Source: an uncultured Alphaproteobacteria bacterium (lineage in GTDB: Bacteria; Pseudomonadota; Alphaproteobacteria; Micropepsales; Micropepsaceae). From it: a stretch of 64,000 nt of DNA. The notes under the pieces were generated by a model. The model worked only from the letters and a program-made list of their open reading frames with translations. It was not told the DNA's origin and did no database searches. A program made the translations under genes and the position numbers. Of the stretch, positions 15,024-63,806 are shown piece by piece (position 1 is the stretch's first letter; each line of letters opens with the position of its first letter). The stretch is taken from positions 7,096-71,095 of the forward strand of contig CAVXZV010000006.1 in NCBI GenBank assembly GCA_963766355.1. Reading direction: 5' to 3'.

Positions 15024-15031
15024 TTTGTTTT

Positions 15032-15158
15032 ACCTCCCCTTTGTGGGGAGGTCGACACACGCAGCGAAGCGCAGTGTGTCGGGTGGGGGGCGTTCCCATC
15101 CGAAAATTTGCCCCCCACCCGGAGCGCTGTGCGCTCCGGCCTCCCCACAAGGGGGAGG
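15032..15158. repeat. REP-like inverted hairpin doublet between cobS and cobT
   Basis: ACCTCCCC-tttgt-GGGGAGGT, internal stem, GGGTGGGGGG ... CCCCCCACCC, stem, CCTCCCC-acaag-GGGGAGG. Confidence 0.8.
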
Positions 15159-15178
15159 CAATGGAAGGGCAATCGACA

Positions 15179-44595: not shown

Positions 44596-45897
44596 ATGAC
44601 GCAGGCTCGCAAGATGGCGAATGTAAAGCTGGAGGCCATCTGTCACGACGCCCCAAGCAACGCAGCGCCTTTGGTGTCGCCGTTGGCGCCCAAAAATATC
44701 GCAAAACTTCCGCCATTGGCCGGCGTGCAGTTGGCCGCGGGTGAGGCCGGAATTCGCTATAAGAATCGCACGGATGTGATGTTGGCGGTGTTTGCGCCGG
44801 GTACCCAGGCGGCGGGTGTCTTTACCAAGTCCAAGACGGCGTCTGCGCCCGTTTACTGGTGCAAGACCAGCCTGAAAGGCGGACAAGCCCGCGCTTTGGT
44901 GGTCAACAGCGGCAACGCCAACGCCTTTACGGGAAAAGCGGGGTTCGATGGAGCGCGCACGGTCGCACAATCCGCCGCGGCCTATGTCGGCTGCAAGGCG
45001 GTTGAGGTTTTTCTGGCTTCTACCGGGGTCATCGGCGAACCGCTTCCCACCGAAAAAATCACACGCGTGCTCGCAAGTCTGGTGCAACAGACATCCGCTG
45101 CAGGCTGGCGCGCTGCGGCCGAAGCGATCATGACGACCGATACGTACCCTAAGCTTGCAACGGCGTCCGCGACCATCGACGGCAAGAAAGTAACGATCAA
45201 CGGCATCGCCAAAGGCTCCGGCATGATTGCGCCGGACATGGCGACAATGCTGTCTTTCGTTGTCACCGACGCAAACCTGCCGGCTGCGGTTCTTCAAGAA
45301 CTGTTATCCGCCGGCGTAAAACCGTCATTCAATTCCATCACGGTCGATAGCGATACGTCCACAAGCGATACGCTGCTGCTGTTTGCGACAGGCAAAGGCG
45401 CAAAGCATCCGGCGATCGCCAAAGCCAACGACAAACGCCTTGGCGATTTCCGCGCCAAGCTCGATGCCGTGTTGCTCGATCTTGCGCTGCAGGTCGTGCG
45501 CGACGGCGAGGGCGCTCAAAAACTGATCCGCATCGATGTGACCGGCGCCGATTCCGACATCGCCGCCAAACGCATGGCGCTTAGCATCGCCAATTCGCCT
45601 CTGGTGAAAACCGCTATCGCGGGCAACGACGCCAATTGGGGGCGCGTTGTGATGGCCATCGGCAAAGCGGGCGAAAAGGCCGACCGCGACACGTTGTCGA
45701 TCCGCTTCGGCAAAGAGCTGGTTGCGGAAAAAGGCGACCGCGCCGCGAAGTATAACGAGGCCGCAGCCACCAAAGCGGTCTCGGGCCTCGAAGTGGAAAT
45801 CGCCGTCGATCTGGCACTTGGCAAAGGCCGCGCGCGCGTCTGGACCTGCGATTTGACGCACGGCTATATCGACATCAACGGGAGCTATAGAAGCTAA
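44596..45897 (+). CDS. argJ: Bifunctional ornithine acetyltransferase
   Basis: [63 protein letters not shown]. Confidence 0.96.
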
Positions 45898-45904
45898 CGC
45901 TTTC

Positions 45905-46104
45905 GCCCGATCCATTTCGCTTCGCTCAATGGATCGCTCGTACGCGGTCGCTACTCGCCCCCGCGTAGGGGGAGGTTAAGGATAAACCCGCAATCTTTCC
46001 ATGCCCACGTTGGGCGACGAGAAATTTGCGATGGTTTGTTTCACCTCCCCCAACGCGGGGAGGTCGATCCGGCGAAGCGCAGCGACGCCGCATCGGGTGG
46101 GGGG
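45905..46104. repeat. REP-like hairpin doublet
   Basis: CTACTCGCCCCC-gcgta-GGGGGAGG at 45951-45975 and ACCTCCCC...GGGGAGGTCGA-stem-CGGGTGGGGGG at 46042-46104. Confidence 0.75.
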
Positions 46105-46136
46105 AAACACCAAAGGCCACCGCAGAAGATCCCGCT

Positions 46137-47425: not shown

Positions 47426-47549
47426 AGCACGATGTTCCGGGTTAGAAACGTCTGCGTTTTGCGCTTTTTCCGATGCATCCCCCCACCCTGACATGCTCGC
47501 TCTCGCTCGCATGTCGCTCGCACGCTGGCGCTACTCGCCCCCGCGTTGG

Positions 47550-48842
47550 CAGGGGTGTCCGGGGAACGATTCACTGTGACGCGGGAGCATGCCCGGCCAA
47601 ATCTGCACGAAGCAGCTACTTTTTGGTTGTCAAGACTTAGCAAGTAGGAAGGCCGAGCATGCGCTACAGCGATAACATTTTTGGTCGTCTTCTCAAACCG
47701 GTCTCGCGCCGGCAGTTCGACGCAAGCGTGGTGCGGCACGAAGCCGATGCCTATGACAAGGAGTTTCGGAGCTGGAACCACATGGTCTTGTTGATCTTTG
47801 CCCAGCTTAGCGGGGTAAGTGGTCTGCGTGACCTTGAAGCGGTGTGGAATGCCAATTCCAATCACCACTATCACCTCGGTGCCGGCAAGATTGCGCGCTC
47901 GACCGTCTCCGACGCCAATGCGCGGCGTCCTGTGGCGGTGTTCGGCGAGACGTTTTCCCGGCTTTCGAGCCTTGCCGACCGCGTGGTACGGCGCGAAGGC
48001 GAGGCGATGCTTCGGCTGATTGATTCCACGCCTGTCCCGCTGAGTGCGGCTATCGATTGGGTGAAGTCGAACGGACGCATTAAAGGGCTGAAGCTTCATG
48101 TCGTCTACGATCCGGTGTCCGACACCCCGACCCATATCGAGATTACCGACGCCAACATCAACGACGTAACCATCGGCGAACGGTTTCCAATCCAGCCCGG
48201 TTTTATGCACGTCTTCGACAAAGCCTATTGCAAATACCCTTGGTGGACAGCAATTCATGAGGCTTCCGCGACGTTCGTGACCCGCCAGAAGATATCTTCG
48301 AAGTTCCGCGCGATTTCCAAGCGCAAGCCCAGAAGATGCAATGGCGACGGCTTCAAGATCATCGACGAAGCCGAGGTCAAGTTCGTCTCCAAGGGCAATT
48401 CCAAGCTCGCGATCCCGCTGCGGCGCATCCGCCTGCGCCGTGATGATGGCCCAAAGATCACACTCATAACCAACGACATGGAGCGTTCCGCCGTCGAGAT
48501 CGCGAGCTTCTACAAAAAGCGCTGGCAGATCGAGCTTCTGTTCCGCTGGATCAAGCAACACCTCGACATCACGACCTTCCTCGGCCGCAACCAGAATGCC
48601 ATCCGATTGCAGATCGTTGCCGCAATGATCGCTTATCTGCTTCTGCGCCTCGCTGCCCGCGAAAATCTCGTCAAAATCCCCATCATCCGTTTGGCCGGCC
48701 TCATCGCGGATCGTCTCTTCCTGCGCATGCCAATCGCAAAAATCGATAAACCGCCAGACGTACACCCCTCCAAACCCAAGCCGGCATACTCCCTTGACCA
48801 GCTGGAGTTCGACTATGCTTGAATTTTCCCCGGACAGCCCTG
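47550..48842 (+). mobile_element. IS4-family insertion sequence, copy 2 (1293 bp), 9-bp TSD CCGCGTTGG
   Basis: Same IRs as copy 1; TSD at 47541-47549 and 48843-48851. Confidence 0.92.
47659..48822 (+). CDS. IS4-family DDE transposase
   Basis: Protein identical to 37828-38991. Confidence 0.92.
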   Translation: MRYSDNIFGRLLKPVSRRQFDASVVRHEADAYDKEFRSWNHMVLLIFAQLSGVSGLRDLEAVWNANSNHHYHLGAGKIARSTVSDANARRPVAVFGETFSRLSSLADRVVRREGEAMLRLIDSTPVPLSAAIDWVKSNGRIKGLKLHVVYDPVSDTPTHIEITDANINDVTIGERFPIQPGFMHVFDKAYCKYPWWTAIHEASATFVTRQKISSKFRAISKRKPRRCNGDGFKIIDEAEVKFVSKGNSKLAIPLRRIRLRRDDGPKITLITNDMERSAVEIASFYKKRWQIELLFRWIKQHLDITTFLGRNQNAIRLQIVAAMIAYLLLRLAARENLVKIPIIRLAGLIADRLFLRMPIAKIDKPPDVHPSKPKPAYSLDQLEFDYA

Positions 48843-49038
48843 CCGCGTTGGGGGAGGGGAAAGATTCTCAATTGTCCCTTTCACCTCCCCCTACGCGGGG
48901 AGGTCGACCTCCGAAGCTGCGCAGCAGCGTAGGAGGGCGGGTGGGGGGCTAGATGTCAGGAAACGGCGCCGACGATTCTACTCCAGAAGTTCTTGCTGTA
49001 GCCTTGGCACCGCGGGCGCTTGCCTTATATTGCAGCGT

Positions 49039-50627: not shown

Positions 50628-50870
50628 CCCTCGCCCCCGCAAGGGGGAGAGGGTTGGGGTGAGGGGGTGCCGATATCAAGCGCGTGCTTGACGCTCGCGA
50701 GCACCATCCCATCCGCAGCATAGTCGTTCGAAAAGCGCGTCACGCGAAATCCTTGCGCCCGCAGAAACTCTTTACGAGCCGCGTCTTACGCTTCTCGCTC
50801 CACATGAAGCGGAACAGCCAATTCGGCGGGCCCCCTCACCCCGGCCCTCTCCCCCTTGCGGGGGCGAGGG
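50628..50870 (-). mobile_element. Internally deleted DUF559 unit between two inverted hairpins
   Basis: Relic PLHVEREA*DAARKEFLRAQGFRVTRFSNDYAAD...TPSP matches the C-terminus of 62483-62869; hairpins at 50628-50667 and 50832-50870. Confidence 0.75.
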
Positions 50871-56961: not shown

Positions 56962-57007
56962 CCCTCGCCCCCAAAGGGGAGAGGGAGATTCTGATCTATT
57001 TCCCCGC
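56962..57007. repeat. Hairpin plus 12-bp copy of the ubiG 3' tip
   Basis: CCCTCGCCCC-caaa-GGGGAGAGGG followed by CTATTTCCCCGC (minus strand A-G-K-stop). Confidence 0.75.
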
Positions 57008-58622: not shown

Positions 58623-58714
58623 GTTTGCGGCGCGCCGAGAGCAGGCACTACCGAGTGATCGATTTTGGCCCGAGGCTGCCGTAGCACCCCAACGGGGGCG
58701 AGGGAGAATCTGAT

Positions 58715-58998
58715 TTATTTCCCCGCCACCACCATGTAATTCACATCCGTATCGCCGGACTGTTTCCGCTGCCATGCCAAGGGATCGAAGCTCACGCCTT
58801 GCGCCTTCAGCACATGTAGGCCGGCGTCTTCGAGCAATTCCCGAAGCCGGCGAGGTTCGACAAAGCGGCTCCAGTCATGGGTGCCGCGCGGCAGCCAGCG
58901 CAGCAAATATTCCGCACCGATCTTTGCCAGCGCCAGCGACTTGAGAGTCTTGTTCAACGTTGCGACGAACATCAAGCCGCCGGGCTTGCCCAGCCGCC
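58715..58998 (-). pseudogene. Duplicated ubiG 3' end (284 bp)
   Basis: Aligns with 63079-63362; about 33 mismatches by manual count (~88%), mostly third-position. Confidence 0.9.
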
Positions 58999-62243: not shown

Positions 62244-62457
62244 CCCTCTCCCCCGCAGGGGGAGAGGGTTAGGGTGAGGGGGTGCTGATATCGAGTGCGT
62301 TCTTTACGGTCACGAGCACGATGCCGATATCATCCGCGGCATAGTCATTTGGAAAGCGCAATACGCGAAAACCTCGAGCCTTAAGAAATGCATCACGGGC
62401 CGAGTCGTACTCAGCCCGTGCGGCATGAAACGGTCCATCCAATTCCACGATTAGCTT
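62244..62457 (-). pseudogene. 5'-truncated DUF559 copy (63 codons) plus terminal hairpin
   Basis: KLIVELDGPFH...GFRVLRFPNDYAADD...TPSP*, diverged from the full copy. Confidence 0.85.
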
Positions 62458-62482
62458 CCCTCGCCCCCGCAGGGGGAGAGGG

Positions 62483-62869
62483 TTAGGGTGAGGGGGTGCT
62501 GGTATCGAGTGCGTTCTGTACGGTCACGAGCACGATGCCGATATCGTCCGCGGCATAGTCATTTGCAAAGCGCAATACGCGAAACCCGCGAGCCTCTAGA
62601 AATGCATCGCGGGCCGCGTCGTACGCCGACCGGGCAGCATGAAACGGCCCATCCAATTCGACAATCAGCTTGTGTTCGACACACACGAAATCGACGATGT
62701 AGGGGCCGATGAGGAACTGACGTTTGAACTTATATCCGCCGAGTTTGCGATTGCGCACTTCGGACCAGAATAATTTTTCCATCGTAACCGGTTTGTGGCG
62801 CATCTTTCGCGCCCGCGTGCGGTTTTCGGTGAGCGATCTTCGCCCCTTTGCGGTTGTATCGCTGACCAT
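62483..62869 (-). CDS. DUF559 (Vsr-like PD-(D/E)XK) endonuclease
   Basis: MEKLFWSEVRNRKLGGYKFKRQFLIGPYIVDFVCVEHKLIVELDGPFH...RDAFLEARGFRVLRF. Confidence 0.9.
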   Translation of the reverse strand: MVSDTTAKGRRSLTENRTRARKMRHKPVTMEKLFWSEVRNRKLGGYKFKRQFLIGPYIVDFVCVEHKLIVELDGPFHAARSAYDAARDAFLEARGFRVLRFANDYAADDIGIVLVTVQNALDTSTPSP

Positions 62870-62970
62870 CCTCCTCACCCCGGCCCTCTCCCCCCATGGG
62901 GGAGAGGGAGATTATTATTCTACTTCCCTCGCCCCCGCAGGGGGAGAGGGTTAGGGTTAGGGTGAGGGGG
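62870..62970. repeat. Back-to-back GC hairpins upstream of DUF559
   Basis: CCTCACCCCGG-CCCTCTCCCC...GGGGAGAGGG at 62870-62908 and CCCTCGCCCCCGCAGGGGGAGAGGG-TTAGGGTTAGGGTGAGGGGG at 62926-62970. Confidence 0.85.
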
Positions 62971-63047
62971 TGCTGGTATCGAGTGCGTTCTTTACGGTCA
63001 CGAGCACGATGCCGATATCGTCCGCGGCGTAGTCTTTTGCAATACGC
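62951..63047 (-). pseudogene. Second, shorter DUF559 3' relic
   Basis: DYAADDIGIVLVTVKNALDTSTPSP*; 7-nt microhomology deletion (TTGC) at its 5' side. Confidence 0.8.
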
Positions 63048-63078
63048 CACACACGACAGCGGAGAGGGAGACTTCGAT

Positions 63079-63806
63079 CTATTTCCCCGCCACCACCATG
63101 TAATTCACGTCGGTATCGCCGGACAGTTTCCACTGCCACGCCAAGGGATCGAAGCTCACGCCTTGGGTCTTCAGCACATGTAGGCCGGCGTCTTCGAGGA
63201 GCTCGTGAAGTCGGCGTGGTTCGACGAAACGGCTCCAGTCATGGGTGCCGCGCGGCAGCCAGCGCAGCACATATTCGGCGCCGATCTTTGCCAGCGCCAG
63301 TGATTTGAGCGTCTTGTTCAAAGTCGCCACGAACATGAGTCCGCCCGGCTTGGTAAGCCGCCCGCAAGCGCCAAGATAGAAGCGCAGATCGGCGACATGC
63401 TCGACGACTTCCATATTCAGAACCACGTCGAAAGCGCGGCCCTCTTCGGCAAGTGATTCGGCCGAGGTTGCGCGATAATCGACGGCGAGCCCGAGGCGGC
63501 CGCATGGGTAGCCGCTGTTTTGATGTTTTTTTCCGAAGCGTCGGCCCCCAAAACATCGAATCCCAAACGGGCCATCGGCTCGCACAGCAGCCCGCCGCCG
63601 CAGCCGATATCCAAGAGGGAGAGACCTTGGAATGGTTTTAGTCCCTGGCGCCCGAAATGCTTGGCCGCGGTCTCGCGGATAAATCCGAGCCGGATGGGGT
63701 TGAACTTGTGCAGGGGGGCGAATTTGCCGGTCGGGTCCCACCATTCGGCGGCTATAGCCGTGAACTTCGCGACTTCGGCGGGATCGATGGAAGGAGCTTC
63801 GGTCAT
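63079..63806 (-). pseudogene. ubiG: Ubiquinone O-methyltransferase UbiG with one frameshift near 63490 (probably intact in vivo)
   Basis: [37 protein letters not shown] / [29 protein letters not shown]. Confidence 0.9.

Follow-up and report, generated by a model that had tools for sequence, protein, structure and literature searches.

The window examined here is a stretch of 64,000 nucleotides from one contig (CAVXZV010000006.1) of an uncultured alphaproteobacterium of the family Micropepsaceae (assembly GCA_963766355.1), and its subject is an array at positions 62244-63078 which contains a gene for a DUF559 nuclease, two partial copies of that gene and several hairpin units. The array is best read as three old and diverged cassettes of one type, stacked together, in which a DUF559 gene is placed between a triplex-forming repeat unit of the BoxC/PIT/TM type (TM unit) and a second such unit in inverted orientation. 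One of the copies is intact and under purifying selection, and the other two have been cut down by deletions ending at or in hairpins. The pairing of DUF559 genes with this repeat is a general architecture that crosses phyla, and the locus is one instance of it. Analysis of its symmetry indicates that a single-stranded unit can probably fold into a purine-motif intrastrand triplex. That the nuclease acts on the triplex-forming ends of its own cassette, and thereby drives their spread, is a serious possibility which falls somewhat short of probable.

Organization of the DUF559 array

The features of the array are as follows, where G021 is a syntenic sister genome described below.

62244-62282, forward strand: TM (BoxC-type) unit closing partial copy B, with hairpin 62244-62268, linker TTA and mirror G-run 62272-62282 (mirror match 11/11)
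62269-62457, reverse strand: partial copy B, the 3'-terminal 189 nt of a DUF559 gene (Pfam; outgroup with a synonymous-biased branch; missing from G021)
62458-62496, forward strand: TM unit at the 3' end of the intact cassette
62483-62869, reverse strand: intact gene for a DUF559, Vsr-like PD-(D/E)XK nuclease of 128 aa (PF04480, E 7e-37)
62870-62908, reverse strand: TM unit at the 5' end of the intact cassette, with G-run complement 62870-62881 and hairpin 62884-62908 (inverted pairs I2 and I3)
62909-62925, no strand: 17-nt inter-cassette spacer, homologous to the junction of ubiG stop and cassette in G021
62926-62970, forward strand: TM unit closing partial copy A, with hairpin 62926-62950, a linker with duplicated TTAGGG, and G-run 62960-62970
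62951-63060, reverse strand: partial copy A, a DUF559 remnant left by internal deletion, with about 85 nt from the 3' end and a short internal GTGTGTG block
63061-63078, no strand: remnant arm GGAGAGGGAG of the 5' hairpin of copy A, then 8 nt that lead to the ubiG stop codon (at 56962-57007 and 58690-58740 this junction has fuller hairpins)

The open reading frame (ORF) of the intact gene begins with ATG at 62869-62867 and ends with TAA at 62485-62483. Hairpins of the form CCCTC[TG]CCCCC-loop-GGGGGAGAGGG occupy 62244-62268, 62458-62482, 62884-62908 and 62926-62950; the G-tail GGGTGAGGGGG is found at 62272-62282, 62486-62496 and 62960-62970, and its complement at 62870-62881. At all four hairpins the G-tail or its complement stands on the side toward a DUF559 coding sequence, and from these positions it follows that the intact gene is bracketed by inverted units. 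The inverted arms around it (pair I3) are 40 nt long and 80% complementary. At its 3' end the gene overlaps the downstream unit, with the TTA linker doubling as the stop codon and the C-terminal residues ..TPSP encoded by the complement of the G-run. The upstream G-run GGTGAGGAGG ends with GGAGG immediately 5' of the ATG. The original prediction, made by a reader who had only the sequence, placed an intact DUF559 gene between inverted hairpin and G-tail units, and the ORF, the PF04480 match and the I3 arms bear this out.

That prediction also described two partial flanking copies, each closing in a hairpin, and both are present. Copy B matches DUF559 profile positions 57-108 (E 2e-11), and copy A extends over about 62951-63060. 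The 214-nt units 62244-62457 and 62458-62671 share 91% identity. The junction of copy B reads GGGAAG/CT, as first described, where the full gene has CACAAGCT. No transposase, integrase or reverse transcriptase is encoded in the 59-64 kb interval according to an ORF scan and Pfam, in agreement with what had been reported for the block, and no methylase gene was found among the ORFs scanned in that interval. Proteins of the block match only DUF559 and MTES_1575 in Pfam, and an HUH Y1 (IS200/IS605-like) transposase is not among the matches. The DUF559 gene is free-standing between ubiG and an unrelated ORF and lacks an intron or intein context. PADLOC assigned no defence-system membership to the block. 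Rfam gave only sub-threshold, microRNA-like matches, to the long palindrome 62870-62967; together with the report that purine-motif triplexes do not form in RNA (PMC4666352), this led to the rejection of an RNA element or riboswitch.

Every junction of the array is tiled without differences by unitigs (X1, 62258-62484; X3, 62388-62501; X2, 62513-62957; X3, 62954-63259). The unitigs are short and come from three to four soil-metagenome runs of one study, which possibly include the assembly's own source, and no long read covers the whole array. Since the unitigs cross each junction free of error, the array is not an obvious assembly artefact, and an artefact was rejected as far as the unitigs allow.

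The end units match the BoxC/PIT/TM triplex repeat

Known since the 1990s, BoxC/PIT/TM repeats are found in hundreds of bacterial genomes and have been linked to genome instability. Accounts of them include Bergler (1992), Bachellier (1999) and Hoyne (2000), and we know of no established origin, partner or function for them. The hairpin and G-tail units of the array are this published intrastrand-triplex repeat, a near base-for-base match: the block unit CCCTCGCCCCC-GCA-GGGGGAGAGGG-TTA-GGGTGAGGGGG is nearly identical to the Escherichia coli TMECO sequence CCCTCGCCCCTCTGGGGAGAGGGTTAGGGTGAGGGG (TMECO rows 22-23, PMC4666352). TMECO forms a triplex in vitro and is the only sequence for which this has been demonstrated (PMC4666352). 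The unit that the original prediction had picked out is therefore real, and its earlier publication had been overlooked. Holder et al. 2015 "never found ... transposases or integrases" beside the repeat, and their paper nowhere uses the word endonuclease (PMC4666352). TM sites are known rearrangement hot spots (PMC4666352).

A triplex repeat of this kind was recognised by a pyrimidine arm, a loop, a purine arm and a third block mirroring the purine arm (G*G:C, A*A:T or T*A:T). The requirement of a purine-motif triplex that the G-run be a mirror image of the hairpin purine arm was tested across the window's own genome (4.54 Mb, 36 contigs). A mirror G-run lay within 70 nt, on one side only, at 174 of 208 pyrimidine/purine hairpins, compared with 0.5% in a control taken 300 nt away, and the mirror match was 11/11 at all four units of the block. 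Purine arm and mirror G-run co-vary between families, as seen in the five pairs counted:

purine arm GGGGGAGG, mirror G-run GGAGGGGG, n=41
purine arm GGGGGGAG, mirror G-run GAGGGGGG, n=6
purine arm GGGGGAAG, mirror G-run GAAGGGGG, n=8
purine arm GGGGGAGAGGG, mirror G-run GGGTGAGGGGG, n=15
purine arm GGGGAGGT, mirror G-run GGGTGGGG, n=42

Repeats in other genomes are mirrored likewise, for example GGGAGAAGG with GGATGAGGG. Base pairing does not account for mirror symmetry. Since purine-motif triplexes are reported not to form in RNA (PMC4666352, introduction), the structure under selection is most likely single-stranded DNA.

Two further properties of the units were observed. At 62945-62970 the duplicated linker of the unit closing copy A yields GGGTTAGGGTTAGGGTGAGGGGG, in which four G-tracts form a telomere-like series and match a G-quadruplex motif as well. 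Elsewhere, at doublet edges, the outward-facing purine arm of a terminal hairpin (GGGGAGGT or GGGGGAGG, then AAA) lies 5' of the ATG of a neighbouring gene, at a distance of 8 nt at 15024-15052 and of about 18 nt at C24:97270-97310, and the repeat may donate a Shine-Dalgarno sequence to host genes.

The nuclease

The protein encoded by the block is identified by profile match as a member of DUF559 (PF04480), a Vsr-like PD-(D/E)XK family, and nuclease activity is predicted for it. Its 128 residues score 126 bits against PF04480 (cut-off 20.6) and cover profile positions 3-108 of 109. The nearest solved structure by sequence is a Neisseria protein (PDB 3HRL, E 5e-20). An AlphaFold (AF2) model with a predicted local distance difference test score (pLDDT) of 78 has a fold matching 3HRL and the catalytic domain of I-Bth0305I (PDB 3R3P; Foldseek E 2e-4, template-modelling score 0.76 on the target), with Vsr itself matched weakly (1VSR, E 0.17). 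Residues D60, E71, D73 and H77, which we take from knowledge of the family to be catalytic, are invariant in nine paralogs of this genome, and these DUF559 paralogs share 35-51% identity with the window protein. Comparison of the intact gene with its ortholog in G021 gives a ratio of nonsynonymous to synonymous substitution rates (dN/dS) of 0.26, and the protein is therefore under purifying selection.

Publications that mention DUF559 were found to describe it as Vsr-like, to propose a Vsr-like role in Caulobacter (PMC12907096), or to list it in a table row among predicted inversion targets (PMC9881135). The repeat and the protein family are each known already, and no publication was found that links them.

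DUF559 genes are paired with the repeat across genomes

A profile search found 15 DUF559 matches in the window's genome. Read in gene orientation, nearly all of these loci have the order hairpin, often a second variable GC hairpin, G-run, ATG and the gene, followed by C-run, second hairpin and hairpin. The inverted repeat from flank to flank exceeded all 200 shuffles (z 6-26) at nine of 13 loci, and control windows displaced by 700 nt gave background scores, except for one (score 47) that fell on a neighbouring element near C1:105502. The same bracket is present in 13 of 19 named relatives, including some in AT-rich DNA, and the bracketed relatives include Rhizomicrobium, Hyphobacterium, Thermomonas, uncultured Gammaproteobacteria and Patescibacteria.

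An even sample was drawn of 121 alphaproteobacterial genomes, one per family, 31 of which carry DUF559. From it 40 DUF559 loci representing 30 families were taken, and a unit was sought within 260 nt of each gene. A correctly oriented triplex unit was found upstream of 30, downstream of 29, on both sides of 23 and on either side of 36 of these loci, whereas the remainder of the same loci held nine units in 96 kb, an enrichment of about 50-fold (P about 1e-46). The inverted-repeat score reached at least 35 in 27 of 39 real loci and in none of 78 displaced controls. The hairpin association foreseen for DUF559 genes in other genomes is thus borne out.

At the level of whole genomes, the motif GGGAGAGGGN{1,9}GGGTGAGGG is present in 28 of the 121, and the reversed pattern matched none of them; the window's genome has 21 copies of the motif. 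DUF559 was found in 15 of the 20 genomes with four or more motif copies and in 16 of the 101 others (odds ratio 16, p 4e-7). An association between hairpin copies and DUF559 presence, also anticipated, therefore holds as an enrichment; the five genomes which depart from it are considered below.

Gene-less derivatives and the protein tree

The window's genome holds at least 46 pairs of left and right units. Among them 36 are gene-less doublets shorter than 170 nt, with a spacer of 10-33 nt in the place of the gene. At least six sequence families of the repeat are present, each of which frames one or more DUF559 genes with like units, and in one family the gene-less spacers begin GGATGTTCGAG or GGATGTTGAAAC where the gene begins GGATGTTCAAG. 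No clear pattern emerged in this genome between the integrity of the gene and the number of gene-less copies per family. On contig C12 two derivatives keep the 5' 118 nt and the last 15 nt. Within the window the derivatives include the following.

50628-50870, reverse strand: a further cassette of this family shortened by internal deletion, in which both TM ends remain and the 3' part of DUF559 is decayed (74% to the full cassette)
15032-15159, no strand: gene-less TM doublet made up of hairpin, second hairpin, G-run, 24-nt spacer, C-run, second hairpin and hairpin; the orthologous intergenic region in G021 lacks it

On a tree of 60 DUF559 proteins the flank type is clustered, with 18 changes compared with 26.6 after shuffling, and none of 200 shuffles gave a value as low. 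The left and right flank types agree in 29 of 36 loci. Sequences from Patescibacteria, Goldiibacteriota and Gammaproteobacteria are nested among those of Alphaproteobacteria. Based on the clustering of flank types, the agreement of left and right and the nesting across phyla, the gene and its ends travel together and cross phyla.

Larger arrangements of the units were also seen. At C12:112876-113416 four right-type units stand head-to-tail at a spacing of 173 nt, a tandem amplification of half an element. The doublets at C23:140078, C3:213430, C6:157504, C6:163870, C6:127829 and C3:111936, which lie beyond the window or reach only partly into it, are nested in a larger palindrome with outer arms of about 45 nt (..CCAGAGCATGATCTTCTGG..GGAATTG.CTGCGCCG.TTTC and GAAAACGGCGCAG.CAATTCC..CCAGAAGATCATGCTCTGG), which forms a second layer of repeat.

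Decay and turnover in a sister genome

The sister genome G021, from which locus L009 derives, is 4.1 Mb in size, shares synteny and about 88-92% identity with the window's genome, and carries an ortholog of the intact cassette; the two orthologs are 93% identical. Copy B is missing from G021 and is 89.4% identical to both orthologs, which places it as an outgroup to them. In a three-branch split the branch of copy B carries about 7.25 synonymous and 2.75 non-synonymous changes, where neutral decay would give a ratio of about 1:3 (p about 0.004). From its outgroup position and synonymous-biased branch, copy B is what is left of a third, older cassette that remained functional through most of its past, and for the same reasons a recent slip or tandem duplication was rejected as its origin.

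Copy A has a counterpart in G021 (E1), which keeps the hairpin, the G-run and ATGAT and then jumps to the last 143 nt. Because E1 keeps both ends, it arose by internal deletion. Copy A of the window itself retains one arm of its own 5' hairpin (63061-63070), part of a junction of hairpin and ubiG stop seen also at 56962-57007 and 58690-58740. In the window's genome, C1:105389-105480 comprises a hairpin, a second hairpin, then ATGCGGAC.CG followed by the right hairpin's far end, and contig C58 of G021 has a whole cassette at that place. The original prediction had read the array as copies with a fixed 3' end and variable 5' ends. This did not hold: copy A keeps a 5' hairpin arm, copy B is an older cassette, and the derivatives on C12 and C1 keep 5' parts, so that the family as a whole does not have the fixed-3' pattern. 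What the derivatives share is deletion ending at or in a hairpin.

Insertions of whole elements also distinguish the two genomes. A cassette on contig C46 of G021 has no trace in the window's genome, where an unrelated doublet is found about 30 nt away in the same intergenic region. The doublet at 15032-15159 and a 238-nt unit pair at 45897-46136 are present in the window's genome and missing in G021. The latter block consists of a right-type unit, 66 nt and a left-type unit between convergent genes which in G021 overlap at CTAG. In other genomes a cassette with TM ends lies in frame in the middle of HsdS, a specificity subunit of a type I restriction-modification system (603 aa, Methylase_S and DUF559; locus L048, genome G026), and another is fused in frame to the 3' end of RuvC (L069, G029).

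Side observations were made on the hairpins next to ubiG. A TM hairpin followed by 12 nt and the ubiG stop and last codons occurs three times in the window (56962-57007, 58690-58998 and 63061-63380) and delimits kb-sized blocks; the ubiG portion at the three junctions amounts to 12 nt, about 300 nt and full ubiG. Contig C30 of G021 (L030, L009) has several ubiG-end fragments of other sizes beside TM hairpins. The ubiG-adjacent hairpin looks like a recurrent point of insertion or recombination. The ubiG gene itself (63079-63806) is split into two frames at about 63490 by a C/G run 1 nt shorter than in the intact G021 ortholog (GCCGCCTC-GGGCTC compared with GCCGCGTCGGGGCTC), which is either a real pseudogene or a consensus error of the assembly. 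A 1.3-kb IS4-like element at 47517-48843, with a 387-aa transposase ORF, ends CAGGGGTGTCCGGGGAA and a 9-bp duplication CCGCGTTGG, sits in a TM hairpin loop. An insertion sequence (IS) with similar ends (CAGGGC...CCCCTG) occupies the hairpin loop of another cassette on C46 of G021 (L077, about 755-1975), and the IS4-like element seems to target hairpin loops.

Comparison with known systems

The closest parallel is with repetitive extragenic palindromic (REP) sequences and their doublets (REPINs), which are associated with REP-associated tyrosine transposases (RAYTs). In both cases a single small gene is flanked by inverted copies of a dispersed palindromic repeat of the genome, gene-less doublets are abundant, gene and repeat families match, and there is no obvious target duplication. 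The analogy to RAYTs drawn in the original prediction is apt with regard to the gene between inverted dispersed repeats and the gene-less doublets. The enzyme here, however, is a PD-(D/E)XK protein of the Vsr-like type whereas RAYT is an HUH Y1 transposase, and the repeat here is predicted to form a triplex whereas REP is a plain hairpin. RAYT genes are single-copy and vertically inherited, in contrast to the multi-copy, often decayed and horizontally spread DUF559 genes. As published, BoxC/PIT/TM repeats share with the present units a dispersed distribution, a frequent occurrence as inverted pairs and a tie to local rearrangement. In the literature they are an orphan repeat without a protein partner, whereas here the repeat brackets a nuclease gene, falls into several sequence families and has an extra variable hairpin between stem and G-run.

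With I-Bth0305I and other EDxHD homing endonucleases (PMC3239194; PDB 3R3P) the protein has in common a Vsr-like catalytic fold and a selfish-gene lifestyle. I-Bth0305I is a multidomain protein encoded inside a group I intron and targets one allele, whereas the protein here is a free, single domain of 128 aa with structured inverted ends at many unrelated sites. E. coli Vsr and Caulobacter VsrA (CCNA_02930, PMC12907096), the latter carrying a DUF559 domain, belong to the same superfamily and Pfam clan, but Vsr is a repair enzyme present in single copy and tied to a cytosine methylase, and the gene here is multi-copy and framed by repeats. Miniature inverted-repeat transposable elements and their parent ISs likewise have terminal inverted repeats and short, gene-less derivatives produced by internal deletion of a gene-carrying parent; in the present case there is neither a DDE or other known transposase (59-64 kb) nor a clear target-site duplication.

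Possible mechanism and alternative explanations

The observed architecture and its generality, the mirror co-variation, the decay by deletion, the turnover between sister genomes and the selection on the gene together suggest that the nuclease may bind or cut the repeat and thereby cause its spread. In such a mechanism the folded cassette ends would be recognised and nicked by the Vsr-like nuclease encoded between them, as would the ends of gene-less derivatives. Nicking would allow cassettes and derivatives to be copied or moved to new sites, without obvious target duplication, and cassettes would then decay in place by hairpin-anchored internal deletion, giving rise to gene-less doublets and solo units. 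A nuclease/repeat partnership of this sort would be laid out like RAYT/REPIN and built from an unrelated enzyme and a triplex-forming repeat. The array had originally been proposed as an undescribed mobile unit in which the nuclease cuts at or near the hairpins. Its mobile-like, decaying and horizontally spread character stands, as the cross-phylum pairing, gene-less derivatives, polymorphisms relative to G021 and in-frame insertions carry the hallmarks of a selfish or mobile cassette; the 5'-truncation signature did not survive, and the role of the nuclease is inferred.

Several observations weigh against nuclease-driven spread. In the window's genome 84 oriented units have no detected partner, and its 12 full DUF559 copies fall into at least six clades of the protein tree, indicating no recent burst. 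No near-identical dispersed doublets were found there (best pair 93%, median 64% identity), and a recent burst of doublets was rejected on the strength of that best pair. No consistent target-site duplication or target motif was detected at the three insertion polymorphisms examined; the candidates for duplication are short and ambiguous (CTA..CTA at 45897/46136, ATTGC..ATTGC in G021), and the doublet on C10 of the window's genome has none. Five sampled genomes with 4-42 motif copies have no DUF559 even at E<=0.01, among them a 4.0-Mb, 100% complete alphaproteobacterial genome (G064) with 42 copies of GGGAGAGGG..GGGTGAGGG, so that the gene is not needed for the repeats to persist, nor perhaps for them to spread. 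Published tests of PIT elements recorded no promoter or terminator activity, and in-vivo studies recorded no effect (summarised in PMC4666352). The genomes compared are also metagenome-assembled drafts.

It is possible, if unlikely, that TM repeats spread or arise otherwise and that DUF559 is a free-standing, homing-type selfish gene which invades the palindromic centre of a doublet (G-run, spacer, C-run) and is later deleted. The gene sits exactly where doublets have their 10-33-nt spacer, the nearest characterised relative by fold is a homing endonuclease, the repeats occur in genomes without the gene, and deletion remnants would fit a homing cycle of gain and loss too. However, cassettes with their own TM ends are found at sites without a prior doublet (mid-hsdS, the 3' end of ruvC and, specific to G021, an insertion 30 nt away from an unrelated doublet), 40-60 nt of TM arm is little for homing by recombination, and the matching left and right flank types (29/36) and their clustering on the protein tree indicate that gene and ends travel together. 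A host function is somewhat less probable still. According to this explanation the cell keeps DUF559 as a Vsr-like nuclease for repair or structure processing, and the TM units are unstable non-B DNA around it or serve its expression, with no mobilisation. Purifying selection on the gene, the Vsr-like role proposed for the Caulobacter protein (PMC12907096), the rearrangement hot spots at TM sites (PMC4666352) and the GGAGG Shine-Dalgarno sequence supplied by the G-run would all be expected of such a gene. The 15 diverged matches in one genome, which span at least six clades, the patchy distribution across phyla, the common pseudogenes and deletion derivatives, and the in-frame insertions in unrelated genes would not; nor would general instability be expected to produce an orientation-specific, two-sided bracket enriched about 50-fold, and the mirror symmetry indicates a structure of DNA rather than RNA.

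There is very little likelihood that the inverted repeats are a switch by which the gene segment flips, whether programmed or driven by RecA. This would explain the presence of DUF559 among predicted targets of programmed inversion, where it is enriched (odds ratio 14, PMC9881135), and the repeats are 40-60 nt long, but no invertase is encoded nearby (59-64 kb), the unitigs at the locus contain no inverted joints, and the gene-less doublets, mirror G-runs and new insertions would be left unexplained. Least credible of all is the idea that the tandem array of partial copies has no biological meaning and was produced by misassembly or by a recent slip duplication. The genome is indeed a metagenome assembly and the 214-nt units are direct repeats; yet each junction is crossed by unitigs of several runs without error, the difference between copies amounts to 9-15%, copy B branches outside the pair of orthologs, and G021 has in E1 an independent counterpart of copy A.

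Implications

Extending nuclease-driven spread beyond this locus is more doubtful than proposing it for the cassette: DUF559 proteins may be the matching enzymes of BoxC/PIT/TM repeats throughout Bacteria, and the cassettes together with the gene-less doublets a transposase-free class of mobile DNA whose intrastrand-triplex ends are nicked by a minimal Vsr-like nuclease. Such cassettes could land between genes or in frame within them. E. coli carries both a DUF559 gene (ycjD) and copies of BoxC. If the repeat and the protein family do form a pair, an orphan repeat would gain a mechanism, and DUF559, a very large family of unknown role, would gain a testable activity. It would also provide a second, independent nuclease/repeat partnership beside RAYT/REPIN, one in which the recognised end is non-B DNA in the form of a triplex.

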